DNA of 64,000 bases from an uncultured Chloroflexia bacterium (GTDB lineage Bacteria > Chloroflexota > Limnocylindria > Limnocylindrales > CSP1-4): the NCBI GenBank assembly GCA_963838285.1, contig CAWIQP010000008.1, positions 88,686 through 152,685 on the forward strand, given 5' to 3'. The position numbers were made by a program, and so were the translations under genes. Of this stretch, positions 41,221 through 60,622 are shown in pieces (position 1 is the stretch's first letter; each line of letters starts with the position of its first letter). The notes below the pieces were generated by a model. The model saw nothing but the letters and a program-made list of their open reading frames with translations. It ran no database searches and was not told the origin of the DNA.

Positions 41221-42300
41221 ATGAAGATTCTGGTTGTTGGTGACTCTTACTGCCCGTGGCGCGCGCTCGGACCGGCGATCGATAGCCTCGCCGTGGACCA
41301 CGAGGTCACCAAGTTCGACGTCGTGGACGAGCCGGCATGGCGCCCGACCACACCGTCGGAGCAGAAAGTGCGGGAGTACCTCGGCAGCCCTCGCCAGGTC
41401 ATCGAGAGACTCGACGGCCACGAGGTCCTGATCGTCCAGGGGGCGCCGGTGACCGACGCCGTGATGGACGCGTCCCCGGCGTTGAAGCTCGTGTGCGTCG
41501 CCCGCGGCGGTCCCGTCAACGTGGACATCGCCGCGGCCACGGAGCGCGGCATCGCCGTCGTCACGACGCCCGGCAAGAACGCTCAGGCCGTGGCGGAGCT
41601 GACGATCGCCTTCATGGTGATGCTGGCCAGGCGGCTGCCCGAGGTGGTCCGGTTCCTCGAGGGCGGGGGCGAACTGGCCCGCGACAACTACGAGGGCGCC
41701 AAGTGGATGGGCCACGACCTAGATGGCCACGTCCTCGGTCTCATCGGCTACGGGCAGATCGGTCATCGCGTGGCACGCATCGCCAGGGCGATCGGCATGC
41801 ATGTGATCGTCTCGGACCCGTACGTTCCGGCTGCCCGGATCGAGGCGGATGGGGCGGAGCCGGTCGACCTGGACACGCTGCTGGCTACCGCCGACTACGT
41901 CTCGATCCACGCCCGCGCAACAGCGGACAACAAGGGCATGATCGGGCGGGCCCAGATAGCGCTGATGAAGAAGGGCGCCTGCCTGATCAACACTGCTCGC
42001 GACACGCTCGTAGATGAAGATGCGGTCTACGACGCTCTCCGTTCCGGCCACCTCGCCGGCGGCGGCTTCGACGTCGTCCGCATCCCCGACCTCTCGATTC
42101 CGCCGGAGCTGGGCCGGCGCCACCGCCTCTACGACGCCCCGAACGTAGTCATCGCCACTCACGTCGGCGGCGCCACGTTCGAGACGATGGGCCACGGCGG
42201 GGAGATGGCCGCAGCCGAGATCGGCCGGCTGGCCGCCGGCGAGCCGTTCGTCAACCTGGCCAATCCGGCCGCGCTCGAGAAGGTGGGAAACCATGCCTGA
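41221..42300 (+). CDS. D-isomer-specific 2-hydroxyacid dehydrogenase (phosphoglycerate / 4-phosphoerythronate dehydrogenase-like)
   Basis: AGGTGA RBS. Rossmann GLIGYGQIGHRVARIA, plus catalytic R/E/H-type residues in ...NTARDTLVDEDAV...ATHVGGAT. The stop overlaps the FGGY kinase start. Confidence 0.85.
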   Translation: MKILVVGDSYCPWRALGPAIDSLAVDHEVTKFDVVDEPAWRPTTPSEQKVREYLGSPRQVIERLDGHEVLIVQGAPVTDAVMDASPALKLVCVARGGPVNVDIAAATERGIAVVTTPGKNAQAVAELTIAFMVMLARRLPEVVRFLEGGGELARDNYEGAKWMGHDLDGHVLGLIGYGQIGHRVARIARAIGMHVIVSDPYVPAARIEADGAEPVDLDTLLATADYVSIHARATADNKGMIGRAQIALMKKGACLINTARDTLVDEDAVYDALRSGHLAGGGFDVVRIPDLSIPPELGRRHRLYDAPNVVIATHVGGATFETMGHGGEMAAAEIGRLAAGEPFVNLANPAALEKVGNHA

Positions 42301-43855
42301 TGCGCACGTCATGGCGATCGACCTGGGAACCGGGAGCTGCCGCGCCCTCATCTTCGACCAAGATGGTCACCAGGTGGCGATGGCCCAGCGCGAGTGGTCG
42401 CACCCGCCTCTCGCGGGAGCGCCCGGCTCGCAGCAGTTCGAGACCGCCCGCAACTGGCCGCTGATCTGCGAGTGCATCCACGAAGCCCTCGCGATGAGCG
42501 GCCTGCCCGCCGACGCGATCAAGGGTGTTTCGAGCACGGCCATGCGCGAGGGCATGGTCCTCTACGACGCGTCCGGAGCCGAGATCTGGGCGTGTCCAAA
42601 TGTCGACTCGCGTGCCGGTGACGAAGCGACTCAGCTGATTGCCGCGGGGGACGCGCGGAGGATCTACGACACCGGCGGCGACTGGGTCTCTATCACCTCC
42701 CCTGCCCGCTTCCTCTGGATCAAGAACCACCAACCGGACGTCTTCGCCCGCATCGCCCACATGGGCATGCTCAGCGACTGGGTTCTCACCAGGCTGTCGG
42801 GCAAGTTCGCCACCGATCCCTCGATCGGCGCAAGCTCAGGCCTGTTCGATCTGGCGAAGGCCGACTGGTCGCCCGAGCTGATCCGCCTGATCGGCCTCGA
42901 GCCCGGGATCTTTCCGGAGGTTCGCCAGCCGGGCACGGTCCTGGGCGATGTGACGGGCAAGGCCGCCGCAGAGACGGGCCTGGCCGCCGGAACGCCGGTC
43001 GTGGTCGGCGGCGCCGACACTCAGCTGGGTCTGCTGGGGATCGGCCGGACCACGCCGAACGCGTTCACGCTCGTGGGCGGCAGCTTCTGGCAGAGCACAG
43101 TCGTCGTGGATAGGCCGCTCATCGATCCGGAGGCGCGGCTCCGCTCCCTCTGCCACGTCATGCCGGGGCAGTGGATGGTCGAGGGCATCGGCTTCTACTG
43201 CGGCCTGACGATGCGCTGGTTCCGCGACGCCTTCTGCGACCTGGAGAAGGCCCGGGCCGCCGAGCGCGGAGTGGATCCGTTCATGGTCATGGAAGAGGAA
43301 GCGGCCACGGTCCCACCGGGATCGAATGGCGTGCTGCCCATCTTCGGCAACATCATGGATGCCAAGCGCTGGGTGCAGGCGTCGCCCTCGTTCGTTCAGT
43401 TCGACATCGACAATCCCGGCACCTCGGGCCGCAAGGAGTGCGTTCGGGCCATCGAGGAGAGTGCCGCCTACGTCGCCCTGGGGCACCTGCGGATCATCGA
43501 GAGCCTGACGGGCTACAGGTTCGAGGAGATCGTGTTCACCGGCGGTGGGGCCAAGGGACACCTCTGGCCGCAGGTTATCGCCGACGTGCTGGGCGTCTCC
43601 GTCAAGGTCCCCGAGGTCAAGCAATCCACCGCCCTGGGCGCCGCGCTGTGCGCCGGCCTGGGCGCGGGCATCTACGGCGATCTGGCAGCCACTGCCGCCG
43701 AGGTCGTCCGTTTCGAGCGGACGTTCGAGCCCGACGCGGCCGCCCACGCCGCCTACCTCACTCTTTTCGACCTGTGGCACGCCGTCTACGGCCGTTTCCT
43801 CGAGATGGGCGACGCCGGCCTGCTGCGCCCGCTCTGGAAGCCCGCCGGAGCCTGA
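42293..43855 (+). CDS. FGGY-family carbohydrate kinase (LsrK / xylulokinase / L-erythrulose-kinase-like)
   Basis: 520 aa: [16 protein letters not shown] (FGGY N-terminal phosphate-1 motif), C-terminal [20 protein letters not shown]. Confidence 0.9.
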
Positions 43856-43929
43856 CCCACACGAACTCAGTACAGCCCACCGATCAGTTCGCCATCCCCA
43901 CCCAGGGACCGGGCAGAAAGAGGAGCGAG

Positions 43930-44825
43930 ATGCCGGAAGCCGACAACGCCGAAGAGAAGAGCTACTACGAAGACGTTCCGCAGCGAAACAGCGCCTTCTT
44001 CCTCAAGGGCGCCGGGGCATACGACTGGGGCATGCAGAACCGCCTGGCCCGGGTCTTCAACCCGGAGAGCGGCAAGACGGTCATGCTGGCCGTCACTACG
44101 GTTACTTCATGGGCCCGACGTCGGGCCTCGAGCGGATCGACGTCAACATCGTGCCGCTCGTCCCCTACACCGACGCCCTCTTCTGCACACGCGGCATCCT
44201 GCGGACAGTCGTACCCGCGGCGACCCGTACGCCGAACGTCCTTCGCGCAAGCGGCGGTCCCTCGATCCTCAAGGAGCTGTCGAACGAGCAGATCGCCATG
44301 GACATGGAGGATGCCGTCCGGCTGAACAGCTGCGGGGTCGGCGTCCAGGTCTTCGTCGGTGGTGAGTTCGAGACCCAGTCCATCCACAACATGACCCGCC
44401 TGGTGGACGCCGGGCTCCGGGTAGGACTGCCCGTCCTGGGCGTCACCGCCGTCGGCAAGGACATGGTCCGCGACGCCAAGTACTTCCGCCTCGCGACCCG
44501 CATCTGCGCCGAGCTGGGCGCCCAGATGGTCAAGACCTACTACGTGCCCGACGGTTTCGAGACCGTCACGGCGTCGTGCCCGGTGCCGATCGTCATGGCC
44601 GGCGGCAAGAAGCTGCCCGAGATCGAGGCCCTGACGATGGCCTATCGGGCCGTCCAGGAAGGCGCCGCCGGAGTCGACATGGGCCGCAACATGTTCCAGA
44701 GCGAGTCGCCCGTAGCCATGATCCAGGCCGTCCGCAAGGTGGTGCACGAGGCCATGAAGCCCGAGCACGCGCTGGAGCTGTTCAAGACGCTCACGTCCGA
44801 GTCCAAGCAGCCCGTCGGCGCGTAG
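43930..44825 (+). CDS. class I aldolase of the DhnA/LsrF (DeoC-fold) family; one frameshift
   Basis: ATG at 43930 ([35 protein letters not shown]...GKTVMLAV). It continues in ORF 43545..44825 as [12 protein letters not shown]...KTYY...MAGGKK (Schiff-base lysine region). One base is missing in gtcactacggttac near 44096. Confidence 0.75.
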
Positions 44826-44834
44826 GCACCCGCG

Positions 44835-45566
44835 ATGGCGACGACAGCGCACCTGCCGTTTCTCGACGGCAGGGCTCGCCTGACCATCGGGATCAACACC
44901 GCCGACCTGGGGCACCTTGCCGACGAGGTCCGCGTCCTCGAGGACGCCCGGGCCGAGATCGTCCACGTCGACGTCATGGACGGCGTCTTCTGCCCGGCGA
45001 CCACCGTCGGGCCGCCCTTCATCAAGGCGATCAGGACGCCGCTTCTCAAGGACGCCCACCTTATGATCGTCGACCCGATCGAGAAGGTGGCCGACTACGT
45101 CGCGGCGGGCGCCGACATCGTCACCTTCCAGGTCGAGTCCACTCGCCATTCCTATCGGGGCCTGCAGGTCCTCGGCAAGGCCGAGAACGCCAACGACCCG
45201 GCCCGCGGGATCGTCCGGGGAGTGGCGCTCAACCCGGGGACGCCCGTATCGGCGGTGGAGCCGCTGCTCGACGAGATCGGGAGTACGTGCTCATCCTGGC
45301 CGTCAATCCCGGCTGGGGCGGCCAGAAGTTCATCGAGTCCACCGAACGCCGCATGGCCGAAGCGGAAGGTTCTATCAAGCGCTCCGGCCGGCAGATCATG
45401 CTCGGCGCCGACGGCGGCGTGACGAAGGACAACATCGCCAGAGTCGCCGGCCATGGGGCCGAACCTCATCGTCACCGGCAGCGCCGTCTTCGACGGCAAG
45501 ACTCCGGCCGACAACGCCCGTTTCATGCTCGACGCGGTCCGGGGCATCGCGGTGGCGACGACGTAG
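44835..45566 (+). CDS. ribulose-phosphate 3-epimerase family protein; two compensating frameshifts
   Basis: N-terminal part (IVHVDVMDGVFCP, ...ALNPGTPV) in ORF 44835..45422. Middle (EYVLILAVNPGWGGQKFIESTERRMAEA...IMLGADGGV) lies in the frame of ORF 44576..45631. The C-terminus (GPNLIVTGSAVFDGKTPADNARFMLDAVRGIAVATT*) returns to the first frame, with stop at 45564-45566. Confidence 0.75.
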
Positions 45567-45643
45567 GCCAACGCCGCTCCGGAATCGAAAGGACGGGGTC
45601 GCGACGCCGGTCGGGCCCCGTCCTTTTGTAGTTGCCGGAGCCG

Positions 45644-46414
45644 TCAGAGCTCGGCGTTCACGATGAAGCCGCCGTCGACGAGGAGCGTCGCGCAGGTCAC
45701 GTACGTCGCGTCGTCCGAGAGGAGATAGGTGATCGCGCCGGCCATCTCCTCGGGCTCTCCGGGCCGGTGGATCGCGATCCGGTCGATGTAGTACTTCCAG
45801 ACCTCGGGGGCAGCGTCGAACATCGGCGCGCTCATGTTGGTCTTGATCCAGCCCGGCTCGACGGCGTTGACGCGGATGCCGTGCTCGCCGAGGTTGCATC
45901 CGAGCGCCTTGGCCAGCATGGAGATCGCGCCCTTGGTCCCGCAGTAGGCGGTCTGGTACGGGGCGCCGACGTGAGCGGAGATGGAGCTGGTGCAGCAGAT
46001 CGCGCCGCCGTGGCCCTCCTTGATCATCTGCTTGGCACCTTCCGTGACCACGACCCAGGTGCCGCGGACGTTGGTCTCCATGAGGTTGTTGAAGTCTTCG
46101 AGGCTCGTCTCGTCCCACTTCATGAACGGGTTGATGGCCGCGTTGGAGACCACGTAGTCGAGCCGGCCGCCCTTCTCGGCGACCTCGTGGACCATCCGAA
46201 TGACCTGTTCGGGGTCGCGCATGTCGGCCACGACCGGGAAGCCCTCCCCGCCCGCCTCCTTGATGCGGCGAAGTGTCTCGGTGGGATCGCCGGTCGGCCG
46301 CTGATTGACGCCGACCAGCGCCCCTTCGGCGGCCAGTCGCACTGCCGTCGCCTGTCCGATTCCATTCGTGGCCCCCGTCACGAGCGCCACCTTGCCGACG
46401 AATCGCTTCTCCAT
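45644..46414 (-). CDS. SDR family oxidoreductase (candidate polyol/ketose dehydrogenase)
   Basis: ATG at 46412-46414 with GGAGGA upstream. TGATNGIG Rossmann motif, NAAI, catalytic YxxxK (YCGTKGA). Confidence 0.9.
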   Translation of the reverse strand: MEKRFVGKVALVTGATNGIGQATAVRLAAEGALVGVNQRPTGDPTETLRRIKEAGGEGFPVVADMRDPEQVIRMVHEVAEKGGRLDYVVSNAAINPFMKWDETSLEDFNNLMETNVRGTWVVVTEGAKQMIKEGHGGAICCTSSISAHVGAPYQTAYCGTKGAISMLAKALGCNLGEHGIRVNAVEPGWIKTNMSAPMFDAAPEVWKYYIDRIAIHRPGEPEEMAGAITYLLSDDATYVTCATLLVDGGFIVNAEL

Positions 46415-46478
46415 TGGAACTCCTCCGAGTGGTCCTGCCGTGAGTGCCATGGTCGATGCCGCTATCGGGACGCCGGAA

Positions 46479-47237
46479 TCAGTGCATGCCGCGGCCGCCC
46501 GCGACGATCAACAACTCGCCGGTGATGAAAGCCGCCTCGTCCGAGGCGAGGAATACGGCCGACGACGCGACGTCGTCGGGAGTGCCCCAGCGCTTGAGGG
46601 CGGTTTCCTCGAGGATCCTCTGCTGCACCTCCGGGTCGATCTCCTCGACCATGTCCGTCCTGATCCAGCCCGGGCAGATGGCGTTGATCCTGACCTGGGG
46701 TCCGAGGGCGAGGGCCATCGCCTTGGTCAGGCCGTTCATGCCCGCCTTCGAGACGACGTACTCCGTGAAGCGCATCGCCGACGGGTGGTATAGGCCGGAG
46801 TTCGACGACATGTTGATGATCGAGCCGGACCCCTGGCGGATCATCACCGGCGCGACTTCCTTGGAGCACAGGTAGGCGCCCTTGAGGTTGACGTCGATGG
46901 TGACGTCCCAGTCGTCCTCGGTCGTCTCGAGGACGCCCTTGGCGACCATCACGCCGGCGTTGTTGACCAGGATGTCCACGCGGCCAAACCGTTCGAGCGT
47001 CCGCTCGACCAGGCGCCGGACGTCCGCGCTCCGCGACACGTCCGCTTGCACGTCGATCGCGGTTCCGCCCGCCGCTTCTATCCCGGCGACGACGGCGGCC
47101 GCGTTCTTCGACCCGGCGGTGTAGTTGACGACGACGGCCGCACCCTCGACCGCGAACCGCTCCGCGACCGCGCGGCCGATGCCTCTTGACGCACCGGTGA
47201 CTATCGCGACTTTGCCCGCCAAGCGCCCTTCGGCCAT
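46479..47237 (-). CDS. SDR family oxidoreductase (second paralog)
   Basis: ATG at 47235-47237. TGASRGIG, NNAG, catalytic YVVSKAG. Confidence 0.9.
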   Translation of the reverse strand: MAEGRLAGKVAIVTGASRGIGRAVAERFAVEGAAVVVNYTAGSKNAAAVVAGIEAAGGTAIDVQADVSRSADVRRLVERTLERFGRVDILVNNAGVMVAKGVLETTEDDWDVTIDVNLKGAYLCSKEVAPVMIRQGSGSIINMSSNSGLYHPSAMRFTEYVVSKAGMNGLTKAMALALGPQVRINAICPGWIRTDMVEEIDPEVQQRILEETALKRWGTPDDVASSAVFLASDEAAFITGELLIVAGGRGMH

Positions 47238-47404
47238 GGCCGTCTCCTTCCAAATCGCCCTGTTCGAAATCGAACGTGACCAGAACCCGGCCCCGGCCAT
47301 CGCGGGCTCCTCTCGCCGGACACTCCGCGAGCGGCGGCAGACGCCGGGCCGGCCGAAGCGGCAACTGGAGGATGCCCTCCGGCCGAGCCCCGCTGCCCGG
47401 GTAT

Positions 47405-47911
47405 CTACTTGGCCGGAGGGTACTGGCGGACCGGTGTCAGCTCGATCGCGTGACCGCTGCCCGACTCCGCGACGAAGTGGGCGTCTTTGGCCGTGTCGAG
47501 GTAGTAGAACTCGATCGTCTCGCCGATGCGGCCGCCCATCGACATCTCATACCCAGCGTCGCCGAAGCGCTTCTTGAACGCATCGGACTCTTCCTGGCTG
47601 TGACTCATCAGGGCAATGTGCTGTACGCCCTCGCCGTATCTGGCCAGGTGTTCCTTGTAGATCGAGTCGCCTTCCAGCGGCTGGATCAGTTCGAAGATGA
47701 GGCCCGGCTGGACTTCGCATTCCGCGCCGATCATCGAGTAGTCCGCCGGCTTGCCGTGCAGGTGCTGGTGGTGGAGCTTCGGCGGCACGTGCTCGTAGAC
47801 GTTCCAGGGGCCCCACCCGAACATCTCGTGATAGGTCTTCATCGCCGCGTCGATGTCCTTGACGACGACCGCGATCTGGCTGATCCGGTACGGCTTCTCG
47901 GGCGGGTTCAT
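47405..47911 (-). CDS. VOC family protein (glyoxalase / bleomycin-resistance / dioxygenase fold)
   Basis: ORF 47405..48202. ATG at 47909-47911 with GGAGGA upstream gives MNPPEKPYRISQIAVVVKDIDAAMKTYHEMFGWGPW...GVQHIAL (169 aa). Confidence 0.7.
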   Translation of the reverse strand: MNPPEKPYRISQIAVVVKDIDAAMKTYHEMFGWGPWNVYEHVPPKLHHQHLHGKPADYSMIGAECEVQPGLIFELIQPLEGDSIYKEHLARYGEGVQHIALMSHSQEESDAFKKRFGDAGYEMSMGGRIGETIEFYYLDTAKDAHFVAESGSGHAIELTPVRQYPPAK

Positions 47912-48174
47912 GGTCTCCTCCAGGTCATCGGTTCCAGGGGCCGGACCGCGCACCGTTGCGGCGACCTCGCCTTCCAGCGCAAAGGCCGACGTTGCGCCAT
48001 CGATCGGAAAGATTGTGCCACCAGGGTCAAGGTCATGCCATACTGGGATGCGTCGCGATACGGTGCCGGCCGAACGGGTAATCTGCAACTCGAAACGCAT
48101 GCCGGCTCGAGTGGCCAGGTGGCAGGCCGATGGGACCGCCGCCGACCGGGCCCGGGCCCGATTGGATGGGAGAC

Positions 48175-49143
48175 ATGGCGACAGGGCAGTCTTCACGGGC
48201 AACGCCGGCGGCCGGCGGCCGCGTCACAGATCTGCTCGTCGAGGTCGCCCGGCGCTTCTACCTTGTCGGTGAGACCCAGGTCGAGATCGCCCGCGATCTC
48301 GGGCTCGATCCGTCGACGGTCTCGAGGTACCTGAAGCGCGCTCGAGACGAGGGAGTCGTCCGAGTCGAGATCCGGCCGCCTCTCCGCCGGAACGTAGACC
48401 TGGGCCGGCAACTCGCCGACGCCTTTCACCTGTCCCGCGTGGTCGTCGCCTCGACCGAAGAGGAGGGCGATCTCTCGTGCCTGGCGGATGTGGCGGCAGA
48501 CTACGTCGGAACTCTTCTCCGCAACGGCATGAGGGTCGGCCTCGGCTGGGGATCCACGCTCTCGGCCACGGTCGGATGCATGGAACCGGGCGCCGTATCC
48601 GACCTGATCATCACGCAGCTGGCGGGCGGCTTGAGCGATCCCGTTCCGGGCATTCAGGGCCACGAGCTGGCCCGCCACCTGGCCAGCCTCTACCCAGGGA
48701 GCCTGGTCCACTACCTGCACGCTCCGTCGATCGTGGACTCGCCGGCCATCAAGGAGGCGATGCTCAGCGATTCCTCCGTCCAGGCCGCCCTGGCGCTGGC
48801 AACTCAGAGCGAATTGGCCCTGGTCGGGATCGGCGAAATAGGCCCGGAGGCGACGCTCCTGCGGTCGTCTCAGGTGACCCGAGGCGACCTTGAGCTGCTG
48901 CTGGCTGACGGGGTCGTGGGCAGCATGAACGGGCGCTTCTTCGGCCGCGACGGCAGGCCCGCCGGCCACCTCGACGAGCGCACCATCGCCATCGAGTGGG
49001 CCCAGCTGGCGGCGATCCCGACCGTCGTCGCCATTGCCGGCGGTCGGACGAAGGCCGATGCGATCCTCGGCGCCCTCCGCTCCGGTTGCGTCGACATCCT
49101 GATCACCGACGAGGCAACCGCGACGGCCCTGGCAGAGCGCTAG
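48175..49143 (+). CDS. SorC/DeoR-type sugar-binding transcriptional regulator (EryD/LsrR-like)
   Basis: GGGAGA RBS then the ATG at 48175. N-terminal HTH (LLVEVARRFYLVGETQVEIARDLGLDPSTVSRYLKRA), C-terminal sugar-phosphate-binding domain (GLGWGSTL...VGIGEIGPEA...). Confidence 0.85.
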   Translation: MATGQSSRATPAAGGRVTDLLVEVARRFYLVGETQVEIARDLGLDPSTVSRYLKRARDEGVVRVEIRPPLRRNVDLGRQLADAFHLSRVVVASTEEEGDLSCLADVAADYVGTLLRNGMRVGLGWGSTLSATVGCMEPGAVSDLIITQLAGGLSDPVPGIQGHELARHLASLYPGSLVHYLHAPSIVDSPAIKEAMLSDSSVQAALALATQSELALVGIGEIGPEATLLRSSQVTRGDLELLLADGVVGSMNGRFFGRDGRPAGHLDERTIAIEWAQLAAIPTVVAIAGGRTKADAILGALRSGCVDILITDEATATALAER

Positions 49144-50590: not shown

Positions 50591-50665
50591 CTCGGAAGGC
50601 ACCGGCGACCAGCTATCCGCCACTTGCCCCAGGCCGGGACACCGAACCAGGAGGCGAAGTCAGAA

Positions 50666-51627: not shown

Positions 51628-51779
51628 GAGGCGCCGTGGGGGTCCAACTCGAAGCGAGGGAGGAGGACGCCTAACGCGAGCGAGGTCTGACCTCCGGGGT
51701 TGCGGCGACGGTCCGTCCGGAGACCTACGTTGAGGTCGACCCAGGTCGACTCGGGTAGAAAGGCAGGAGAGAGGTCCAA

Positions 51780-53345: not shown

Positions 53346-53463
53346 TCGCCTCGTCAAGTCCGGTCTAGCAATTCGAACGAGCGGCGCCGACCGAGAGGAC
53401 GGCGCCGCTCCTCTTCCCGGGCATCGAAGGCTGCCCGCCCGGAAGGTCTCCTGGAGGTGCGCA

Positions 53464-54583
53464 ATGCCTGAGCTATTCGGCAGTTCCTACTCTCGGTCGG
53501 ATCTCCTTCGCCACGTCGGTAGGCTCGAGCAGGTGGCCGGCGTCCGGCTGGTCACTCTCGGCGACAGCATCGGTCGTGGCGTCAGGGTGCTCGAGTTCCG
53601 GACGGGCTCGGGCTTCTCGTTCGATATCGTGGTGGATCGCTGCTTCGACATCGGCCGGTGCGAGATGGACGGCCGGCCGCTCAACTGGCAGGGCAACCCC
53701 GGCATCACCGGGCCGTGGTACTACGAGAACGACGAATGGGGCTGGTTCCGCTCCTGGGGCGGCGGGATGGTCGTGACCTGCGGCCTGGATCACACGCTGG
53801 GCCTCCGGCGAGGACGACGCCAGCGACTACCACCAGCCCCACATCTTCAAGACGGTCCACTACTCGCTCCACGGCCGAGTCGGCGGTCTGCCGGCCCGGC
53901 TCGTCGGCTACGGCGAGCGCTGGGACGGCGACGAGTGCGTCCTCTGGGCCGAGGGCGAAGTGCTCCAGTCGGCGATCTTCGGCGAGCATCTGCTGTTGCG
54001 ACGCCGAGTCGAGGCTCGCGTCGGCGAGGCTCACTTCACGATCCACGACGAGGTCGAGAACGTCGGGCACAACCGCACCTCGCACATGCTCCTGTATCAC
54101 TGCAACGCCGGCTTCCCGGTGATGGACGAGGGGTCGCGACTGCTGGTCCCATCACTCAAGACGACCACCGACTACGACGTGACGCCCGAATTGATGGCGA
54201 GCTACCGCACGCTCACCGGACCCATCAAGGACTACAGCGAGAAGTGCTTCGAGCACGAGCTGGTGGCCGAGAAGGACGGCAAGGTGCCGGTCGCCATCGT
54301 GAACCGGAAGCTCGGCTTGGGCGTCTACCAGGTCTTCCGCATCGACCAGCTGCCGCATCACACGGTCTGGCGGATGATGGGCGAGGACAGCTACGCCATG
54401 GCCATGGAGCCCGGCACCAATCGCGACGCGGGCCGCTGGGACGCCAAGCAGCGCGGCGAACTCCAGCACATGGAGCCCGGCGACGTCCGGCGCTACGACC
54501 TGGAGATCGGCGCCCTGGTGGGCGATACGGCGATCGATGGCTTCGCGGCCCGAGTCGAGAAGCTCGTGCCGGATCCGAAGTAG
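53464..54583 (+). CDS. DUF4432-family protein (aldose-1-epimerase-like fold, commonly in sugar catabolic loci); one frameshift
   Basis: N-terminus in ORF 53464..54927 up to ...VVTCGLDHTLG. Frame change near 53815 (homopolymer). It continues through EDDASDYHQPHIFKTVHYSLHGRVGGLPARLVGYGERWDGDECVLWAEGEV into ORF 53960..54583. Confidence 0.6.
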
Positions 54584-54707
54584 GCGGCGGCCGGTCCAAC
54601 GGCTCCGACCAGACGGCGGTCTGTTCGGCCGCGGCGGAGACGCCTAGATTTGCCCGGCTGAGCGAGCGTTCGGAACCGCCCGAGAGCGCTCCGTCTGGAG
54701 TTCCAGG

Positions 54708-55034
54708 GTGTCGTACGGGTTTCTCCACCGCTGGACCGAATCGGCGAGATCGTCGGTCGTGCGGCCGAGCCGGCCGTTCCGGCGCGTCGTCGGGCGCGCC
54801 GAGATCGAGCCCGGCTGGCTGGTGGCGGACGTCAACGGACAGGGCGTGGGAAAGGTGCGGGGCCGAGAGGGCGACTTCATCGCCGTCTCGCGTGGCCTGG
54901 GCCGCTCCCCGCTCTACGTTCCACTGACCGCGATCGCGGAGGTCAGGGACGGCACGATCCGGCTGAACCTCAGCGCGAGCTCGATGGGCGATCGGCGCTG
55001 GTCGGAAAAGCCTCGGAGCGCCGGCCGGCAGTAG
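54708..55034 (+). CDS. DUF2171 / PRC-barrel-like small protein
   Basis: 108 aa: ...GWLVADVNGQGVGKVRGREGDFIAVSRGLGRSPLYVPLTAIAEVRDGTIRLNLSAS. The true start is probably an internal GTG. Confidence 0.45.
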   Translation: MSYGFLHRWTESARSSVVRPSRPFRRVVGRAEIEPGWLVADVNGQGVGKVRGREGDFIAVSRGLGRSPLYVPLTAIAEVRDGTIRLNLSASSMGDRRWSEKPRSAGRQ

Positions 55035-55114
55035 CGGTGGCGCGGGACCGAGGACGTCATGCCGCGCGAACGCCGAGTCGGGTCGCCGATGCCGGCCGGG
55101 TCGTTTGGCTGCCG

Positions 55115-55897
55115 TCAGCCGGCCGCGGAATCCTCCGCCGTGAGCGTGCGACTGGCAATGCTTCCCGCGTGGGCTATCCGGGCGAATTCGGCCGGGTCGA
55201 GCGCGCTCCGCCCGACGAACAGGCCGTTCACCCCGGGTTGGACCAGGATGCCCCCGGCAATGTCCGCGCTCACGCTGCCGCCGTAGATCACCGGCACCTC
55301 GGCCCCGCGCCCGACGTTCTCCCGCAACCAGGTGTGGATCGCGCCGTGGACCTCGCCGACCCACCCGGGTTCCGCGGGCGCCGACCCGACGCCGATCGCC
55401 CAGACGGGCTCGTACGCCAGCACGAGACGGCTCGCGTCGGCGGACGCCAGCAGCTCCAGCTGGCGGCGGACGCGGGTAATGACCCCGGCCAGGGGCTCCC
55501 GCTGCCGGTTGGCCGACGCACACTATCGCCGTCATGCCCCAACGCTGGATCGCGGAGACCTGGGCCGGGACTCGCTCGTCGGACGCGCCCTGCATCGCAC
55601 CGCCGCTGCGCAGATGGCCGACCTCGACGTACGTGCAGCCAAGATCGGCCAGCATCGGGGCGGACACGTCCCCCGTGTGAGCGCCCGAGTCCTCCGGGGT
55701 CCACGTCCTGCGCTCCCCACGCGACCCGGCTCCCCGCGGAGCCCCTGGGCGACCGCCCAGATCGCCGTGAATGGCGGAAGCACGAAGAGATCACAATCCA
55801 CGACGTCGTCCACCAGGGGCCGCGGCGCCCAGCAGATATCGCGAGGCCTCACTCGAGGTGAATTTTTAGTCCAGCTCGTGCCAATGAGCATGCACAT
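55115..55897 (-). CDS. triosephosphate-isomerase paralog (TIM-like; candidate tetrulose-phosphate isomerase, LerI/EryH-like); multiple frameshifts
   Basis: N-terminus M(C)MLIGTSWTKNS...VLPPFTAIWAVAQGL (ORF 55532..55897); middle GAHTGDVSAPMLADLGCTYVEVGHLRSGG...IVCVG (frame of ORF 54225..55667); C-terminus LVLAYEPVWAIGVG...VIYGGSV...GLFVGRSAL (ORF 55115..55423). At least three indels at about 55690, 55670 and 55510. Confidence 0.75.
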
Positions 55898-55905
55898 GCC
55901 GCCGC

Positions 55906-56538
55906 CTATTCCCGAGCCGTCGGACTGCCGCGGAGGGCGGCCGCCATCGCCTCGACGATGATGGCGAACGAAGTCGCTCCGGGATCAGCCGAGCCGCGGC
56001 TAAGCTCGCCGAGCTTGCTGGCCCGCCCGACCGTGGCGATCATGCCGGCGGTCGAGTCCGCTCCCCTGCGCGCGGCCGCCGCGGCCGCATCGATTCCCAC
56101 CAAGAGATCGTCGCCTCGGACCTCGGAGGCACGCAGCGATTCGACCAGCGGGTGAAGCGCGTCGAGGACGGTCTTGTCGCCGGGTTTGGCCTTTCCGCGC
56201 TCGGCGATTCCGGCTTCGGCTGCCTCGGCACAGGCGCGAAGCTGGCCCACCGTCACCGGCGGGGCCGGGGCCAACGCCGCGATCTTCAGCAGACCCGTCA
56301 TGTAGATCGGACCGATGGCACCGCCGACGGAGCCGATGCCGAGGGCGACCTGTCGGATCAGATCCGGCCCGGAGGCGTCGGGGGACGCCGTCAGCTTCTG
56401 CCGGACGCTTCGCGCGGCGATCGCCATCGTCATCCCGTGGTCGCCGTCGCCGGCCCTTGCGTCGAGGACGCCGAGTTCGTCTCGGGCTGCCTCCAACGCG
56501 TCGGCGGCGGCAAGGATGCAGCTTCGTAGCTCGCTCAT
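55906..56538 (-). CDS. dhaL: dihydroxyacetone-kinase ADP-binding subunit DhaL-like
   Basis: ATG at 56536-56538 overlaps the dhaK stop (ATGA). MSELRSCILAAADALEAARDELGVLDARAGDGDHGMTM (DGDHG motif), about 210 aa. Confidence 0.85.
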   Translation of the reverse strand: MSELRSCILAAADALEAARDELGVLDARAGDGDHGMTMAIAARSVRQKLTASPDASGPDLIRQVALGIGSVGGAIGPIYMTGLLKIAALAPAPPVTVGQLRACAEAAEAGIAERGKAKPGDKTVLDALHPLVESLRASEVRGDDLLVGIDAAAAAARRGADSTAGMIATVGRASKLGELSRGSADPGATSFAIIVEAMAAALRGSPTARE

Positions 56539-57557
56539 CGGGCGTACCCGACAGCTCGGGCCGTGGCGTCGAGCAGCTCGCGCAGCTCCGCGTCGAGGTC
56601 CATCACGGTCACGGACGCTCCGGTCATCTCGAGCGAGGTGATGAACTCTCCGACGTGACTCCGCGTGACGGTGTTGCCCGCCGCCTCGAGCGCCTTGCGC
56701 GCACCCCGATAGAGGATGTACTGGTCCAGGTGAGCCGTGGCGCCAAGGCCGTTCACCATGAGCGCGAACTCGTGCCCGGACGGCGAGTCCATGTCCGAGA
56801 GGATGACGTCCACGAGCGACGCCGCGATCTCGTCGGCGGTCACCAGGGGCCCGCGGCGCATGCCCGGCTCGCCGTGAACCCCCATCCCGATCTCCATCAT
56901 GTCCGCGGGGATCTCGAAGGTGGGCCTGCCCGAGCCGGGGACCTCGCACGGAGAGAGCGCAACGCCCATGCTGCGAGTGGCCGCGTTCGCCTTCCGGGCA
57001 ACCCGGTCTACCTCGTCGAGTGTGGCGCCGCGTTCGGCCATCGCGCCGATGCACTTGAACACGTAGATGTCGCCCGCGGTGCCGCGCCGCTTCTCAGCCT
57101 CTGCCCGCGGGGAGGAGGCGACGTCGTCCATCACCCGGACCTCGCGGACGTCGATGCCCTCGGCTTCGGCGAGTTCCCTGGCAAGGCCGAAGTTGAGCAC
57201 GTCGCCGCTGTAGTTCCCGTAGCTCATGACCACGCCACGGCCCGTGTCAGCGGCCCGGATCGCATCGAGGCATACGTCGGGGGGCGGCGAGGCGAAGACG
57301 TTGCCGCACGCGGCCGCGTCGGCGAACCCGACTCCGACGTACCCCGCGAACGCGGGCTCGTGGCCGGAGCCGCCGCCCACGACGAACCCCACCTTCGGTC
57401 CGGCGGGAGTGCGCCGCGCAACGACGCGCGGCGCGGCCAGGCGCACCAGGTCCGCGTTGGCCGCGACGAAGCCTTCGAGCATCTCGTCGACCGCGTCGAA
57501 CGGGTCGTTGATGATCTTCTTGAGAACCCCGCGGGAGACCTCCGGCTGCTGTGGCAT
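56535..57557 (-). CDS. dhaK: dihydroxyacetone-kinase substrate-binding subunit DhaK-like (candidate D-erythrulose / DHA kinase)
   Basis: AGGAGGA then ATG at 57555-57557. ...GFVVGGGSGHEPAFAGYVG...VVMSYGNYSGDVLNFG...HGEPG. Canonical DhaK motifs. Confidence 0.9.
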   Translation of the reverse strand: MPQQPEVSRGVLKKIINDPFDAVDEMLEGFVAANADLVRLAAPRVVARRTPAGPKVGFVVGGGSGHEPAFAGYVGVGFADAAACGNVFASPPPDVCLDAIRAADTGRGVVMSYGNYSGDVLNFGLARELAEAEGIDVREVRVMDDVASSPRAEAEKRRGTAGDIYVFKCIGAMAERGATLDEVDRVARKANAATRSMGVALSPCEVPGSGRPTFEIPADMMEIGMGVHGEPGMRRGPLVTADEIAASLVDVILSDMDSPSGHEFALMVNGLGATAHLDQYILYRGARKALEAAGNTVTRSHVGEFITSLEMTGASVTVMDLDAELRELLDATARAVGYAR

Positions 57558-57604
57558 CTCCATCCTCCTGGTCGAGCGCCCCGACCGCGGGCGCCTGCTG
57601 CCGG

Positions 57605-58075
57605 TCAGACTCGGCCTGAGTCGGGCGTGCGTTCGCCGGCCGTGATCTTATTCACCTTGCGCTCGGATTCCCCGCCGGAGAACTCGGAGGCGAGCCAGAT
57701 GCGCACCAGCGACTTCGCGAGCTCGGGCCCGACGACGCGCGCGCCCATGGTCATGATCTGGGTGTTGTTCGACTTCCGCGACCGCTCGGCCGAATAGGGG
57801 TCGTGCACCTGGGCGGCCCGGATCGGGCACCTTGTTGGCCGTGATTGCCATGCCGATCCCGGTGCCGCAGATGAGGACCCCCTATCGTGCTCGCCGCGAG
57901 CGATGGCGTGGGCGACCTCGTAGCCGATGTCCGGGTAGTCGACGCTGTCGAGCGAGTAGCAGCCGTAGTCCTTGACCTCGATCTCCTCATCGTGCAGCAG
58001 CTCGATCACCGTTTGCTTGAGTGCGAAGCCCGCCTCGTCGCATCCGATGGCAATCTCACGGTACTTGGAAGTCAC
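57605..58075 (-). CDS. RpiB/LacA/LacB-family sugar-phosphate isomerase (candidate D-erythrulose-4-P / ribose-5-P isomerase, DerI/EryI-like); two compensating frameshifts
   Basis: GTG at 58073-58075 with AGGTG 5 nt upstream gives VTSKYREIAIGCDEAGFALKQ...DYPDIGYEVAHAIARGEHDRG. Then G-homopolymer loss; (V)LICGTGIGMAITANKVP in the frame of ORF 57648..57851; back in frame for IRAAQVHDPYSAERSRKSNNTQIMTMGARVVG...RKVNKI. Confidence 0.8.
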   Translation of the reverse strand: MTSKYREIAIGCDEAGFALKQTVIELLHDEEIEVKDYGCYSLDSVDYPDIGYEVAHAIARGEHDRGSSSAAPGSAWQSRPTRCPIRAAQVHDPYSAERSRKSNNTQIMTMGARVVGPELAKSLVRIWLASEFSGGESERKVNKITAGERTPDSGRV

Positions 58076-58184: not shown

Positions 58185-59753
58185 ATGGAAATGTCGCCGC
58201 CCGCCCGACCTGCGGTCCGAGGTCGATCTGCTACCGTTCCCGGTCGTGGAGCAGCGCAGCCGACCTCGTCGGGCAGACGACCGACCCCCTTCGGGCCGGA
58301 AGCCGGGGTAGCCACGGTCGCGGACGCGGCCGCCTCGGGCCCGACCGCTGAGCTCGATCTGTCGGCGCTCGCCTCGGCGCTCGCGACGTCCGACCCCTCC
58401 GGCCGTCGTCATCCGATCGGGCTGCGTCGGATCCTGATCGGCGACGACGCGCTGACATCCCTGCCGGGCGTCGTGGCCGAGCTGAAGCAGGTCGGGCCGG
58501 TCGTGATGCTGACCGACCCTACCCCCATGAACAGGCGCGGCGAGGACCTCAAGCCTGCCGTCCTGCGACTCCTGGCCGGCACGTTTCCGTGCCGGTGGGA
58601 GATCGTTCGGGGCAGCGCGGCCCAGCTGCACGCGGAAGAGGGTTCCATCGCCGAGGCTCAGACCCTGGTGGCCGGAGCCGGCTGCGTCGTCGTCGTCGGC
58701 TCGGGCACCATCACCGACATCGGCAAGGAGGCCACCCGGCGCGCGGGCGGCATCCCGCTCGTCGCCGTCCAGACGGCGGTTTCCGTCAACGCCTTCTCCG
58801 ACGACATGGCAGTCCTCCTCATCGACGGGGTGAAGCGAACCGTGCCGTCGCGCTGGCCGGATGCCCTCGTGGTCGATCTGTCGGTCATCGCGGATGCGCC
58901 TGTCGAGATGAACAGGGCCGGGTTCGGCGAGCTGGCCTCGATGTATACCGCGCCCGCGGACTGGTACCTCGCCGGCGCGGCCGGCATGGACGACGGCTGG
59001 CTCGGGGCCCCGGTGGAGCTGGCACGCCGGGAGGCCGAGGCACTGCTGGCGGCGGCCGTGCGGATCCACGACCGGGAGCGCGACGCCCTGGCGCTGCTGG
59101 TCCGGGCCATGACGATGAGCGGGATCGCGCTCGGAATCGCGGGCAAGACGGCCCCCCTGTCGGGGAGCGAGCATCTCATAAGCCACATGCTCGACATGGA
59201 CGCGGCGGCGACTGGCCGGGAGGCGGCCTTCCACGGCGCGCAGGTCGGCGTTGGGTCGATCCTGATGGCGATCGTCTGGCGCGAGACACTCGCCCGCTGG
59301 TACGCGGGCGGGTTCGAGATCGGACGACTGTATCCGTCCGCGACCGATCTGGAACCGCAGGTTCGGGCGGCATTCTCGCGCCTGGATCCGTCGGGCCGGG
59401 CCGCGGACGAATGCTGGCGCGACTACTCGCGTAAGCTGGATCGCTGGCACGCGGCGAGACCGCGATTCGAAGCTTTCGTGCGCGATTGGCCGAGGCACAG
59501 GGCGGCGCTCGGATCGCTGGTCGCGGATCCGGCCACGCTCGCCGCGGCCATCGAGCGATCCGGTGCGCCGGCGCGCTTCTCGCAGCTTCGACCGGCGGTT
59601 TCCCCGGACGTCGCCCGCTGGGCTCTCCGCCACTGCCACCTCATGCGCGACCGGTTCACGGTCATGGACCTGCGCTTCTTCGCGGGAAGCTGGGGCGACG
59701 AGGACGTCGAGTCGGCGCTGGGTGTCGCGGCCGGGTTGGGGGCCGGCCTGTGA
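58185..59753 (+). CDS. iron-containing alcohol dehydrogenase superfamily protein, glycerol-1-phosphate dehydrogenase (EgsA/AraM)-like
   Basis: ORF 57972..59753; start uncertain (ATG 58185, or internal starts up to about 58330). Conserved core from IGLRRILIGDDAL...VVVGSGTITDIGKEA (nucleotide loop)...D...H...H metal ligands (SEHLISHMLD...FHGAQVG). Confidence 0.7.
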   Translation: MEMSPPARPAVRGRSATVPGRGAAQPTSSGRRPTPFGPEAGVATVADAAASGPTAELDLSALASALATSDPSGRRHPIGLRRILIGDDALTSLPGVVAELKQVGPVVMLTDPTPMNRRGEDLKPAVLRLLAGTFPCRWEIVRGSAAQLHAEEGSIAEAQTLVAGAGCVVVVGSGTITDIGKEATRRAGGIPLVAVQTAVSVNAFSDDMAVLLIDGVKRTVPSRWPDALVVDLSVIADAPVEMNRAGFGELASMYTAPADWYLAGAAGMDDGWLGAPVELARREAEALLAAAVRIHDRERDALALLVRAMTMSGIALGIAGKTAPLSGSEHLISHMLDMDAAATGREAAFHGAQVGVGSILMAIVWRETLARWYAGGFEIGRLYPSATDLEPQVRAAFSRLDPSGRAADECWRDYSRKLDRWHAARPRFEAFVRDWPRHRAALGSLVADPATLAAAIERSGAPARFSQLRPAVSPDVARWALRHCHLMRDRFTVMDLRFFAGSWGDEDVESALGVAAGLGAGL

Positions 59754-60622
59754 GCGACCGCAAGACGGCCCGAGGGTCCGCGGGCGACTCGGAACGAGGG
59801 CACAATTCGATCGGGTCGCCCCTCCGGCCGGACCGGCTCTACGACGGCTACGTCATCGATCTGGACGGGACGGTCTACCTGGGCAACGCGCTGCTGCCCG
59901 GTGCGCGCCAGACGATCGAGCAGCTGCGCCGGGCCGGGCGCCGCCTGGTCTTCCTCACCAACAAGCCCCTCGAGCGCTCCTCCGACTACGCCGCCAAGCT
60001 GACTCGCCTGGGGCTCCCGACAACGCCAGCGGAGATCGTCTCCTCTACCGACGCGCTGCTGCGCTACCTCGGCGAGAGAGCGGCCGGAGCGCGGATCTTC
60101 CCCGTGGCCGAGCCGCTGCTGTGGGAGCTCCTGGCGGAGGCCGGGTTCGAGACGACGGACCGGCCCGAGCGCGTGGACGTCGTGGTTGCGTCGTTCGACC
60201 GAACCTTCGACTACGCGAAGCTGAAGATCGCCTTCGACGCCATTCGGGCGGGGGCGCGTCTCGTCGCGACGAATCCGGACGCGTTCTGCCCTACTCCCGA
60301 CGGCGGGCTGCCCGACTGCGCGGCAATGCTGGGAGCGATCGAGGGCTGCACCGGGGTGCGAGCCGAGGCGATAGTGGGCAAGCCCTCGCCGCACATGGCG
60401 GCGACGCTGCTGGAGCGTCTGCACGTCGACGCGGCGGAGACGTTGCTCGTGGGCGACCGCCTCGCGACGGACGTGCGGATGGCCGCCGAGGCAGGGATGG
60501 CGAGCGCGCTGGTACTCACGGGAGCCACGCGCGGCAGCGACCTGGCGGCCTCGCCGATCCGGCCGGACTACGTGCTTGAGGAGATCGGCGACCTCCTGCC
60601 GAGGCCCAAGCCATTGCGGTAG
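59750..60622 (+). CDS. HAD-IIA family hydrolase (NagD-like sugar-phosphate phosphatase)
   Basis: GTG at 59750 overlaps the upstream stop. YVIDLDGTVY (DxDGT), FLTNKP, ...VGDRLATDV (motif IV). Confidence 0.8.
   Translation: MSDRKTARGSAGDSERGHNSIGSPLRPDRLYDGYVIDLDGTVYLGNALLPGARQTIEQLRRAGRRLVFLTNKPLERSSDYAAKLTRLGLPTTPAEIVSSTDALLRYLGERAAGARIFPVAEPLLWELLAEAGFETTDRPERVDVVVASFDRTFDYAKLKIAFDAIRAGARLVATNPDAFCPTPDGGLPDCAAMLGAIEGCTGVRAEAIVGKPSPHMAATLLERLHVDAAETLLVGDRLATDVRMAAEAGMASALVLTGATRGSDLAASPIRPDYVLEEIGDLLPRPKPLR

Follow-up and report, generated by a model that had tools for sequence, protein, structure and literature searches.

LsrK and LsrF are known from the lsr operon of Escherichia coli and Salmonella (lsrRK and lsrACDBFG(E)), which serves the uptake and breakdown of autoinducer-2 (AI-2; 4,5-dihydroxy-2,3-pentanedione, DPD). 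LsrG is the phospho-DPD isomerase of that system and LsrF is 3-hydroxy-5-phosphonooxypentane-2,4-dione thiolase. A second described system is the erythritol/L-threitol pathway of Mycobacterium smegmatis, with EltD, LerK, LerI and DerI; the names and reactions of LerK, LerI and DerI are those of PMC10733421. Counterparts from both systems lie side by side in the DNA analysed here, a stretch of 64,000 nucleotides (the window) from an uncultured Chloroflexia bacterium (assembly GCA_963838285.1, contig CAWIQP010000008.1, positions 88,686 to 152,685 of the forward strand). Positions 41025-58060 of the window hold one copy of a catabolic regulon that is conserved among uncultured microbes of soil and peat, with LsrK and LsrF in its core. 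The families and the two modules were already known. No published description of this gene combination was found in the literature searched, and searches on DUF4432, on LsrK and LsrF in archaea or Chloroflexota and on glucosaminate lyases gave no account of the cluster.

A first-pass annotation of the window, made by a model from the letters alone, had read 41221-60622 as a variant or hybrid carbohydrate pathway that might be undescribed. This stands in so far as a conserved LsrK/LsrF core is found with a tetrulose module, and no published account exists in the literature searched. It does not stand for C4-polyol catabolism as the core of the pathway, nor for the membership of the iron-containing alcohol dehydrogenase (Fe-ADH) and HAD phosphatase genes at the downstream end.

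LsrK and LsrF

Judged by their sequences, the FGGY kinase and the aldolase of the cluster are a true LsrK kinase and a true LsrF of the CoA-dependent thiolase type. The kinase scores 617.6 bits with the NCBIfam equivalog NF008187 (cut-off 528), finds LsrK 5YA0 as its best match in the PDB (493 bits, against 114 bits for xylulokinase) and shares 44.6% identity with E. coli LsrK along 98% of its length. The aldolase scores 410 bits with the equivalog NF006081 (cut-off 297). It is 64% identical to E. coli LsrF, identities across phyla being 61-64%, and an intact ortholog matches E. coli LsrF (PDB 3GKF) with 412 bits, the next match reaching 116 bits. What the first-pass annotation called an LsrK/LsrF-like module can thus be upgraded to genuine orthologs by equivalog cut-offs, PDB scores and identity to the E. 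coli proteins. That LsrK and then LsrF act in sequence to give dihydroxyacetone phosphate (DHAP) and acetyl-CoA is quite probable.

The rest of the lsr system is not found with them. A tblastn search with E. coli LsrG (E<=1e-3) found nothing, either in the window or in the 83 loci searched, and LsrACDB/LsrB gave none in the window and, among the 83 loci, weak matches to binding proteins (22% identity) in three. The SorC-family regulator of the cluster is 28% identical to E. coli LsrR; in NCBIfam it scores 185 bits with DeoR and 120 bits with LsrR (cut-off 486), both below cut-off.

Gene content of the cluster

The G+C content of the window is ~69%, and genes were called by codon-position G+C and verified with Pfam and NCBIfam scans. 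Each family listed in the first-pass annotation was found where it had been placed. The features of the cluster, followed by two neighbouring genes, are as follows.

41025-41058, + strand: tandem direct-repeat element, copy 1, ~165 nt 5' of the 2-hydroxyacid dehydrogenase gene; includes TGGCACAATCTTTCC
41221-42300, + strand: D-isomer 2-hydroxyacid dehydrogenase (2-Hacid_dh), phosphoglycerate-dehydrogenase-like (PGDH-like); Pfam 2-Hacid_dh_C 158 bits
42293-43855, + strand: FGGY kinase, the LsrK ortholog, of autoinducer-2/DPD kinase type; reading frame intact
43930-44825, + strand: DeoC/LsrF-type aldolase of the DhnA class I aldolase fold, the LsrF ortholog; one frameshift
44835-~45564, + strand: ribulose-phosphate-3-epimerase-like (RPE-like) protein; Pfam Ribul_P_3_epim; frameshifts at ~45281 and ~45453
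45644-46414, - strand: SDR oxidoreductase 1; Pfam adh_short_C2 195 bits; 98% identical to the ortholog in locus L002
46479-47237, - strand: SDR oxidoreductase 2; Pfam adh_short_C2 221 bits; 88% identical to the L002 ortholog
47405-47911, - strand: VOC-fold protein; Pfam Glyoxalase_4
48006-48039, - strand: tandem direct-repeat element, copy 2, in the divergent VOC/SorC intergenic region
48130-49143, + strand: SorC-family regulator (helix-turn-helix and sugar-binding domain); Pfam Sugar-bind 208 bits; alignment to homologs begins at 48175
49430-50590, + strand: DSD1-like enzyme of fold-type III, dependent on pyridoxal 5'-phosphate (PLP); Pfam Ala_racemase_N and D-ser_dehydrat
50666-51625, + strand: cyclase-family metal hydrolase (PF04199), kynurenine-formamidase-like; frameshifts at ~50755 and ~51287
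51780-53345, + strand: APC-superfamily permease; Pfam AA_permease_2 103 bits; reaches no NCBIfam cut-off
53464-54583, + strand: DUF4432 protein; Pfam DUF4432 spread over two frames; frameshift at ~53804
55134-55897, - strand: paralog of triosephosphate isomerase (TIM); 7-8 indels
55906-56541, - strand: DhaL (Dak2) kinase subunit; Pfam Dak2 135 bits
56535-57563, - strand: DhaK (Dak1) kinase subunit; Pfam Dak1 390 bits
57605-58060, - strand: RpiB/LacAB-family isomerase, D-erythrulose-4-phosphate-isomerase-like; Pfam LacAB_rpiB; two frameshifts
58350-59753, + strand: Fe-ADH_2, like glycerol-1-phosphate dehydrogenase (G1PDH-like)
59783-60622, + strand: HAD-IIA phosphatase

In the window the island comprises at least four transcription units in both orientations. 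The APC permease is the sole transporter of the cluster there (Pfam); as the first-pass annotation had remarked, no sugar ABC or PTS transporter lies within the island, in either the Pfam or the NCBIfam scans. Between the DUF4432 and TIM genes is an open reading frame (ORF) of 128 residues with gene-like codon bias (54648-55034, + strand), whose sole match is a sub-threshold one to DUF2171 (23.7 bits, cut-off 25).

Conservation across genomes

Species-representative genomes were scanned with LsrK as the anchor, which yielded 80 loci. Partners were counted from a tblastn presence matrix and gene-order maps; 43 loci have full 10-kb flanks around LsrK, and flanks of this length undercount partners that lie further away. 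The closest LsrK homologs of the window come from metagenomes. The nearest loci (89-92% identical) belong to Candidatus Limnocylindrales and Chloroflexia metagenome-assembled genomes (MAGs) from peat and soil, and the closest relatives of the window copy are Candidatus Limnocylindrales, Chloroflexota. More distant loci are found in Actinomycetota (Gaiellaceae, Thermoleophilia, Solirubrobacterales, Acidimicrobiales), Dormibacterota, Acidobacteriota, Bathyarchaeia, Nitrososphaerales and one member of the Bacillota.

Partners among the 43 full-flank loci are:

VOC 39, 2-hydroxyacid dehydrogenase 37, LsrF 36, PLP enzyme 34, RPE 31
APC permease 22, SorC 21, cyclase 19, DhaK 18
TIM 13, RpiB 12, DUF4432 12, AraD-like class II aldolase 9
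Fe-ADH 0, HAD 0

LsrK, VOC, 2-hydroxyacid dehydrogenase, LsrF and the PLP enzyme form the invariant core. VOC is the most constant partner of LsrK (67/80 loci overall), the dehydrogenase gene lies directly 5' of LsrK in 65/80 and an RPE-like gene follows LsrF in 44/80. Gene content is kept across phyla while gene order shifts. The usual order in Chloroflexota is RpiB<TIM<DhaL<DhaK<(SDR)<SorC< on one side of the divergent region and VOC>(AraD)>2Hacid>LsrK>LsrF>RPE>PLP>SDR>cyclase>APC>DUF4432 on the other. In locus L062 (Solirubrobacterales) the PLP enzyme, SDR, cyclase, VOC, 2-hydroxyacid dehydrogenase, LsrK, LsrF, RPE and SDR genes make up a single operon. The cluster is therefore conserved as a unit in related genomes that span phyla, which removes the doubt, raised in the first-pass annotation, that its genes might not keep company elsewhere. 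The PLP enzyme, cyclase, APC permease and DUF4432, which had seemed unexplained extras, are part of the same operon in most genomes.

Fe-ADH_2 and HAD-IIA genes occur within 10 kb of LsrK in 0/80 loci; the G1PDH-like dehydrogenase and the HAD phosphatase, counted earlier as island members, were dropped from the pathway, and the conserved unit stops at ~58060. The Fe-ADH of the window scores 145 bits with the NCBIfam G1PDH model (cut-off 413). Its ORF carries a C-terminal extension of ~90 residues without a Pfam match. The Fe-ADH_2/HAD-IIA pair recalls AraM/AraL of Bacillus subtilis.

Several variants and neighbours were seen around the related loci. In archaeal and Bacillota variants (L058:8717-14852, L052, L060, L083:8955-18242), VOC and LsrK are accompanied by a class II aldolase and by E1-alpha/E1-beta/E2 proteins, and LsrF is missing; the E1/E2 set resembles an acetoin/2-oxoacid dehydrogenase complex. 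In L083 (Bacillota) a ribose-type Peripla_BP_4 binding protein and an ABC transporter adjoin LsrK. A protein of ~676 residues without a Pfam match recurs beside the cluster (L032:2889-4919, - strand, and 12 other loci) and in Ktedonobacteraceae lies between the SDR and 2-hydroxyacid dehydrogenase genes. A YhfZ-like regulator is near the cluster in eight loci (e.g. L032:1834-2865, + strand); occasional neighbours are a RuBisCO-like protein (L010:16722-18026, - strand) and a DAO-family FAD oxidase (L066:12974-14173, + strand).

A shared repeat element

The pattern of the tandem direct repeat, GGCA-N4-CTT-N2-C-N5-TGGCA-N4-CTT, has exactly two matches in the 64 kb, with 0.01 expected. An exact 15-mer core is present at equivalent places in L001, L002, L004, L006, L007 and L008, and degenerate copies lie upstream of VOC or 2-hydroxyacid dehydrogenase genes in 10 more distant loci. 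No copy was found upstream of the Dha module or the Fe-ADH gene in the window. Direct-repeat operators are known for CggR, which is of the same family as the SorC regulator. The element is probably the operator of the SorC regulator, and copy 1 the operator/promoter of the 2Hacid-LsrK-LsrF-RPE operon. A sigma-54 promoter was considered for TGGCAC-N-TTGC and rejected: the GG-to-GC spacing is 9 instead of 10, and an enhancer-binding protein is absent.

The tetrulose module

A DhaK/DhaL/TIM/RpiB module joins the cluster in about a quarter of the loci, the TIM and RpiB pair being present in 20/80. Generic family models do not tell the TIM and RpiB paralogs from the housekeeping enzymes, and overall similarity did not separate the TIM paralog from housekeeping TIMs; active-loop signatures and a small tree did. 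In loop 1, LerI and the cluster TIMs have GTS[WSF]KMN where canonical TIM has GNWKMN; in loop 6, IG[VAE]xG in place of IGTG; and in loop 8, GLF[VI]GRxA[LW] in place of VGGASL. The window and cluster TIMs thus read GTSWK, IGVG and VGRSAL for the housekeeping GNWK, IGTG and VGGASL. All three signatures are common only to the cluster TIMs, the solved LerI (PDB 11ef) and a Rhizobium LerI ortholog (385 bits against 11ef). A neighbour-joining tree, small in that it held four canonical TIM sequences, placed the cluster TIMs and LerI apart from those four with 74% bootstrap. The TIM is 37-40% identical to the solved LerI, and a homolog 71% identical to it is labelled L-erythrulose 1-phosphate isomerase by JGI. 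On the signatures and the tree, then, the TIM paralog groups with L-erythrulose-1-phosphate isomerase and not with housekeeping TIM, as the first-pass annotation had expected.

The RpiB paralog follows suit. Next to the Rhizobium LerI ortholog lie an RpiB gene and, from the apionate pathway, OiaX and OiaK. The corrected RpiB of the window is 57% identical to this RpiB, as against 49% to canonical RpiB, and the two have the motif HD.YSAER..KSN[ND].Q in common; the earlier expectation of a non-housekeeping RpiB is borne out to the extent that its closest counterpart adjoins a LerI ortholog. DhaK and DhaL, the putative erythrulose kinase, are encoded as separate subunits, and DhaK scores 440 bits with the NCBIfam dihydroxyacetone kinase family (cut-off 492). 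Taken together, the predicted TIM/RpiB/DhaKL route from L-erythrulose to erythrose 4-phosphate is moderately probable.

In the window the Dha/TIM/RpiB module is downstream and inverted, whereas the nearest relatives have it upstream of the dehydrogenase, and it is 53-71% identical to theirs while the remaining cluster genes are 85-98% identical. This different place, inversion and lower identity suggest that the module of the window is a second, independent recruitment, and this speaks for a functional link. The module is nevertheless optional, an accessory subordinate to the LsrK/LsrF core. C4-polyol catabolism, which the first-pass annotation had put at the centre, fails as the core function: TIM/RpiB are in 20 of the 80 loci only, and the island has no polyol ABC transporter and no recognisable tetritol dehydrogenase, the best SDR score with the GolD/DthD model being 179 (cut-off 286).

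The PLP enzyme and its neighbours

The best PDB match of the PLP enzyme is D-threonine aldolase 4V15 (212 bits); D-3-hydroxyaspartate aldolase is also among the best solved relatives, and dehydratases score lower. The PLP-lysine motif RPH[IV]KVHKSP is kept. In D-threonine aldolase (AxDTA) the metal ligands are His347 and Asp349 (PMC4401734). The corresponding VPSHVDPT is replaced by VPGYSPGT, that is by Tyr and Pro, in the window and in 47/48 cluster homologs. The label DSD1-like given in the first-pass annotation therefore fits the family domains and the PLP lysine but not the metal site, and the enzyme belongs to a distinct new subfamily that lacks the metal ligands of the DSD1/D-threonine-aldolase family. 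A canonical D-threonine aldolase giving glycine and a tetrose was ruled out, since those ligands are missing. The physiological role of the D-threonine-aldolase-like family as a whole is still called largely unknown (PMC4401734). In several Chloroflexia genomes three tandem DSD1-like PLP paralogs, ~48-52% identical to the window enzyme, lie downstream of the cluster (L010, L016, L021, L029, L031 and L064; e.g. L010:18087-21433).

The sole PDB relative of the cyclase is the uncharacterised 5IBZ. Other loci carry two further genes that the window and its nearest relatives do not have: SDR3, beside the PLP enzyme, which reaches the cut-off of the glucose-1-dehydrogenase subfamily (217.5 against 215), and the AraD-like class II aldolase, which passes that of the AraD subfamily (302 against 257). 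DUF4432 is mutarotase-like by its clan assignment.

Two core proteins with proposed roles

The VOC protein finds weak matches only in the PDB, to glyoxalase- and methylmalonyl-CoA-epimerase-type proteins. It is nonetheless a candidate ketol isomerase in place of LsrG, because the ketol shift is glyoxalase I chemistry; we lean equally for and against this assignment. The best NCBIfam match of the 2-hydroxyacid dehydrogenase is PGDH, below cut-off, and its best PDB match is PGDH 1WWK (160 bits).

A model of the pathway

In the model that we propose, the APC permease would bring in an organocation. This is probably an amino sugar, or else a related amino compound that has a reducing end. DUF4432, an SDR, the hydrolase and the PLP enzyme would oxidise and deaminate it to a C5 1-deoxy-keto sugar of the DPD type, which LsrK would phosphorylate at C5. 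The VOC protein may then carry out the ketol shift that is the job of LsrG in E. coli, to give 3-hydroxy-2,4-pentanedione 5-phosphate. Alternatively or in addition, the PGDH-like enzyme may reach the same compound by oxidising the C4 hydroxyl of a 1-deoxypentulose 5-phosphate, a role proposed because a hydroxyl beside CH2-O-phosphate matches the regiochemistry of phosphoglycerate dehydrogenase. Stereoisomers would be funnelled into the route by the RPE-like and AraD-like epimerases, acting at C3 and C4, and LsrF would move the acetyl group to CoA, releasing acetyl-CoA and DHAP. In the optional branch DhaKL would phosphorylate L-erythrulose, and the LerI-type TIM and DerI-type RpiB would isomerise the product to erythrose 4-phosphate. 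The two phospho-diketoses have their C4 homologs in L-erythrulose 1-phosphate and D-erythrulose 4-phosphate, which may explain why the modules travel together. As a whole, from imported amino compound through a DPD-type C5 diketose, LsrK, VOC and/or dehydrogenase and LsrF to DHAP and acetyl-CoA, with the L-erythrulose branch as an option, the model is tentative and falls a little short of an even call.

The nature of the imported compound is its most speculative part. The APC permease, DUF4432, the sugar-1-dehydrogenase-like SDR, the hydrolase and the D-amino-acid-type PLP enzyme together suggest a cationic reducing sugar, and the membership of the PLP enzyme in a D-amino-acid-specific family was counted for the amino-compound module. 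An origin from amino sugars specifically is doubtful. A hexosamine could balance as CO2, NH3, acetyl-CoA and DHAP. S-ribosylhomocysteine, 5-deoxyribose, D-apiose, 6-deoxy-amino sugars and pentose Amadori compounds were considered as substrates, but could not be tied to the enzyme set. The E1/E2 variants fit the same logic, as another route from a methyl ketone to acetyl-CoA.

A number of points weigh against the model. That LsrK and LsrF are orthologs is no proof of DPD as the physiological substrate, and for the passage from amino compound to 1-deoxy C5 diketose there is no established or fully justified route. With its metal ligands missing, the PLP enzyme can be assigned no chemically necessary role, and the roles of the VOC and PGDH-like proteins were proposed solely from co-occurrence and reaction logic. 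For the accessory branch, in overall score the cluster TIM does not favour LerI (142 bits) over Thermus TIM (165 bits); RpiB scores 150 bits with a rhizobial DerI model (cut-off 240) and passes generic RpiB models; and the tetrulose module is absent from most loci and has no repeat-element copy in the window. All carriers are uncultured MAGs and the evidence is computational throughout. Finally, with at least 15 indels and a Tyr for an invariant His in LsrF, the copy in the window may be non-functional.

Frameshifts in the window copy

Indels were mapped by frameshift-aware alignment of the window to intact orthologs on related contigs. At least 15 single-base indels fall in six genes: LsrF (1), RPE (2), cyclase (2), DUF4432 (1), RpiB (2) and TIM (7-8). 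The frameshift-corrected proteins keep 83-90% identity for genes that have close orthologs. Corrected RPE-like protein and cyclase are 82.6% and 90% identical to their L002 orthologs, and corrected DUF4432, TIM and RpiB are 77%, 57.5% and 65.5% identical to those in L019. A homopolymer adjoins 12/15 indel sites, against a background of 54%. Outside the island, two genes look as if they were split by frameshift in the same way: a LytR_cpsA_psr domain (34398-35081, in the gene region 33442-35081) is without the first 51 positions of its profile, and a GGDEF domain at 37669-39600 is matched only over profile positions 29-87 of 161. Homopolymer adjacency, retained protein identity and split domains outside the island together indicate that most indels in the island are probably long-read errors.

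LsrF deserves separate mention. A deletion of 1 nt lies at ~44095, and after repair 44089-44103 reads A-V-D-Y-G-Y-F. The motif D-H-G(-Y-F) is invariant in 62/62 LsrF homologs. The repaired copy has D-Y-G, and the deletion and a His-to-Tyr change thus hit this motif twice within 4 nt.

Upstream, the island is flanked by genes for signalling proteins, a LacI regulator and an SPFH protein, and 24093-31911 is rich in signalling genes, among them those for a hybrid PAS histidine kinase that also has receiver and Hpt domains and for receiver-GGDEF, CYTH and GGDEF-HD proteins. At 10917-16406 (- strand) an ORF of 1830 residues has an atypical G+C content, higher at codon position 2 than at position 1, and sits in strongly positive GC skew (0.12-0.20).

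Alternative explanations

The presence of LsrK and LsrF above equivalog cut-offs, with a SorC-family regulator related to LsrR and an RPE-like gene that recalls lsrE of Salmonella, brings to mind a canonical Lsr quorum-sensing system that imports and destroys the AI-2 of neighbours, and the Bacillota locus L083 even has a ribose-type binding protein and ABC transporter by LsrK. Such a system is unlikely here: the window lacks LsrACDB and LsrG, as do the 83 loci save for the weak ABC matches in three, the regulator falls far from LsrR in identity and score (28%; 120 against 486), the transporter is an APC permease, and a PLP enzyme, hydrolase, dehydrogenases and tetrulose module would be superfluous for AI-2 processing. 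The cluster is also present in Bathyarchaeia and Nitrososphaerales. Nor is it easy to see the island as primarily one for erythritol or threitol catabolism, on the pattern of Brucella Ery or M. smegmatis LerK-LerI-DerI, onto which LsrK and LsrF were added, although DhaK/DhaL, a LerI-type TIM and an RpiB paralog are grouped together, SDRs and a SorC regulator are at hand, and JGI names the TIM homolog accordingly. We hold this quite unlikely, given that nearly all loci have VOC, 2-hydroxyacid dehydrogenase, LsrF and the PLP enzyme but only 20/80 have TIM and RpiB, that a polyol ABC transporter or binding protein is wanting, that no SDR comes up to the GolD/DthD cut-off (179 against 286) and that the module promoter has no repeat element. 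The TIM-RpiB pair serves other pathways too, as beside OiaX/OiaK in Rhizobium. A different use of the same enzymes would be an Entner-Doudoroff-like pathway for amino-sugar acids, with no DPD-type intermediate. An amino sugar would be oxidised to a 2-amino-2-deoxy-aldonate, the FGGY kinase would phosphorylate the aldonate or its 2-keto-3-deoxy product, the PLP enzyme would remove ammonia and the LsrF-like class I aldolase would do a plain aldol cleavage. A glucose-1-dehydrogenase-like SDR is available, DUF4432, hydrolase, D-amino-acid-type PLP enzyme and organocation-type permease share one operon, and gluconokinase is among the FGGY kinases; an oxidative route from glucosamine through glucosaminate to an ammonia-lyase has been proposed elsewhere (PMC12343721). 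LsrF and LsrK, however, pass equivalog cut-offs, enzymes as similar as these LsrF proteins are to that of E. coli (61-64% identity across phyla) usually catalyse the same reaction, and the near-universal VOC and PGDH-like enzyme and the RPE/AraD-like epimerases would be left without a role, so this pathway too is improbable.

Two further explanations concern the copy in the window and not the chemistry. It could be a decaying pseudogene island in which the indels are genuine and the pathway has been lost by the host; the number of frameshifts over six genes (7-8 in the TIM gene alone), the double lesion at the invariant motif of LsrF and the intact frames of several long genes elsewhere in the window all speak for decay. 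Protein identity on either side of the shifts, however, equals that of the unbroken neighbours, most indel sites (12/15) are next to homopolymers, domains are split outside the island too, and long-read MAG projects are the source of many of the close relatives; decay has little likelihood in our judgement, and either way the conserved cluster exists in relatives and its identity is unaffected. That the island consists of unrelated operons merely side by side is hardly credible. It has at least four transcription units in both orientations, and Fe-ADH and HAD are indeed unrelated neighbours, but more than 60 species-level genomes, drawn from several phyla, hold the same set in changed order, L062 and many Chloroflexota have it fused as one operon, and two of the units have a regulatory element in common.

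Implications

LsrK and LsrF have so far been studied almost only as quorum-sensing and anti-virulence targets. Orthologs in a catabolic operon that has no AI-2 transporter and no LsrG suggest that diketoses of the DPD type occur as ordinary intermediates of metabolism. Where metagenomes of such soil and peat lineages, archaea included, are annotated with 'AI-2 quorum sensing', the label may mislead. The cluster also gives specific hypotheses for the VOC-fold protein, DUF4432, the PF04199 hydrolase and the new D-threonine-aldolase-like subfamily, and, if the substrate is an amino sugar or glycation product, it would be relevant to carbon and nitrogen turnover in soil and peat. A wider and speculative reading, which we consider possible rather than likely, is that LsrK and LsrF are not primarily quorum-sensing proteins but the end of an ancient catabolic pathway, widespread in soil bacteria and archaea, from an amino sugar or glycated amine through phospho-DPD to DHAP and acetyl-CoA. 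The VOC protein would be a non-homologous replacement of LsrG, the metal-independent DSD1-type PLP subfamily would do a new reaction, the LerI/DerI branch would handle the C4 homolog and the Lsr system of enterobacteria would have arisen late from this pathway by a swap of transporter.

Comparison with known systems

The oxidative amino-sugar routes, which lead from glucosamine through glucosaminate and an ammonia-lyase to 2-keto-3-deoxy-gluconate, have parallels in the upstream part of the cluster: a sugar-1-dehydrogenase-like SDR, a possible lactone-opening hydrolase, a PLP enzyme of D-amino-acid type and the mutarotase-like DUF4432. The cluster differs in having LsrK and LsrF downstream and no PfkB kinase or Eda aldolase, and the link is hypothetical. 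The PLP enzyme shares domain architecture and PLP-lysine motif with the D-threonine aldolase/DSD1 family. It departs from that family in that His347 and Asp349 (Cys in the dehydratases) have become Tyr and Pro across the cluster-linked subfamily, and in its place in a sugar operon.

With the M. smegmatis erythritol/L-threitol pathway the accessory module shares a Dak-type kinase, a TIM of LerI signature, an RpiB isomerase and the predicted output, erythrose 4-phosphate. The LerI-DerI pair also acts after 3-oxo-isoapionate-4-phosphate decarboxylase in D-apionate catabolism. Unlike the mycobacterial pathway, the cluster has its kinase in two subunits, no EltD/DthD-type polyol dehydrogenase and no ABC transporter; the module is optional and its TIM is merely 37-40% identical to the solved LerI.

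The lsr operon is the counterpart of the core. LsrK, LsrF, a SorC-family regulator and the expected end products, DHAP and acetyl-CoA, are common to both. In contrast to the lsr operon, the cluster is without LsrG and LsrACDB and uses an APC permease as transporter, has the VOC-fold protein and the PGDH-like dehydrogenase as constant partners, and adds the PLP enzyme, hydrolase, SDRs, DUF4432 and the optional tetrulose module. The hosts differ as well: the lsr operon is one of enteric bacteria, whereas the cluster belongs to soil Chloroflexota, Actinomycetota and archaea.

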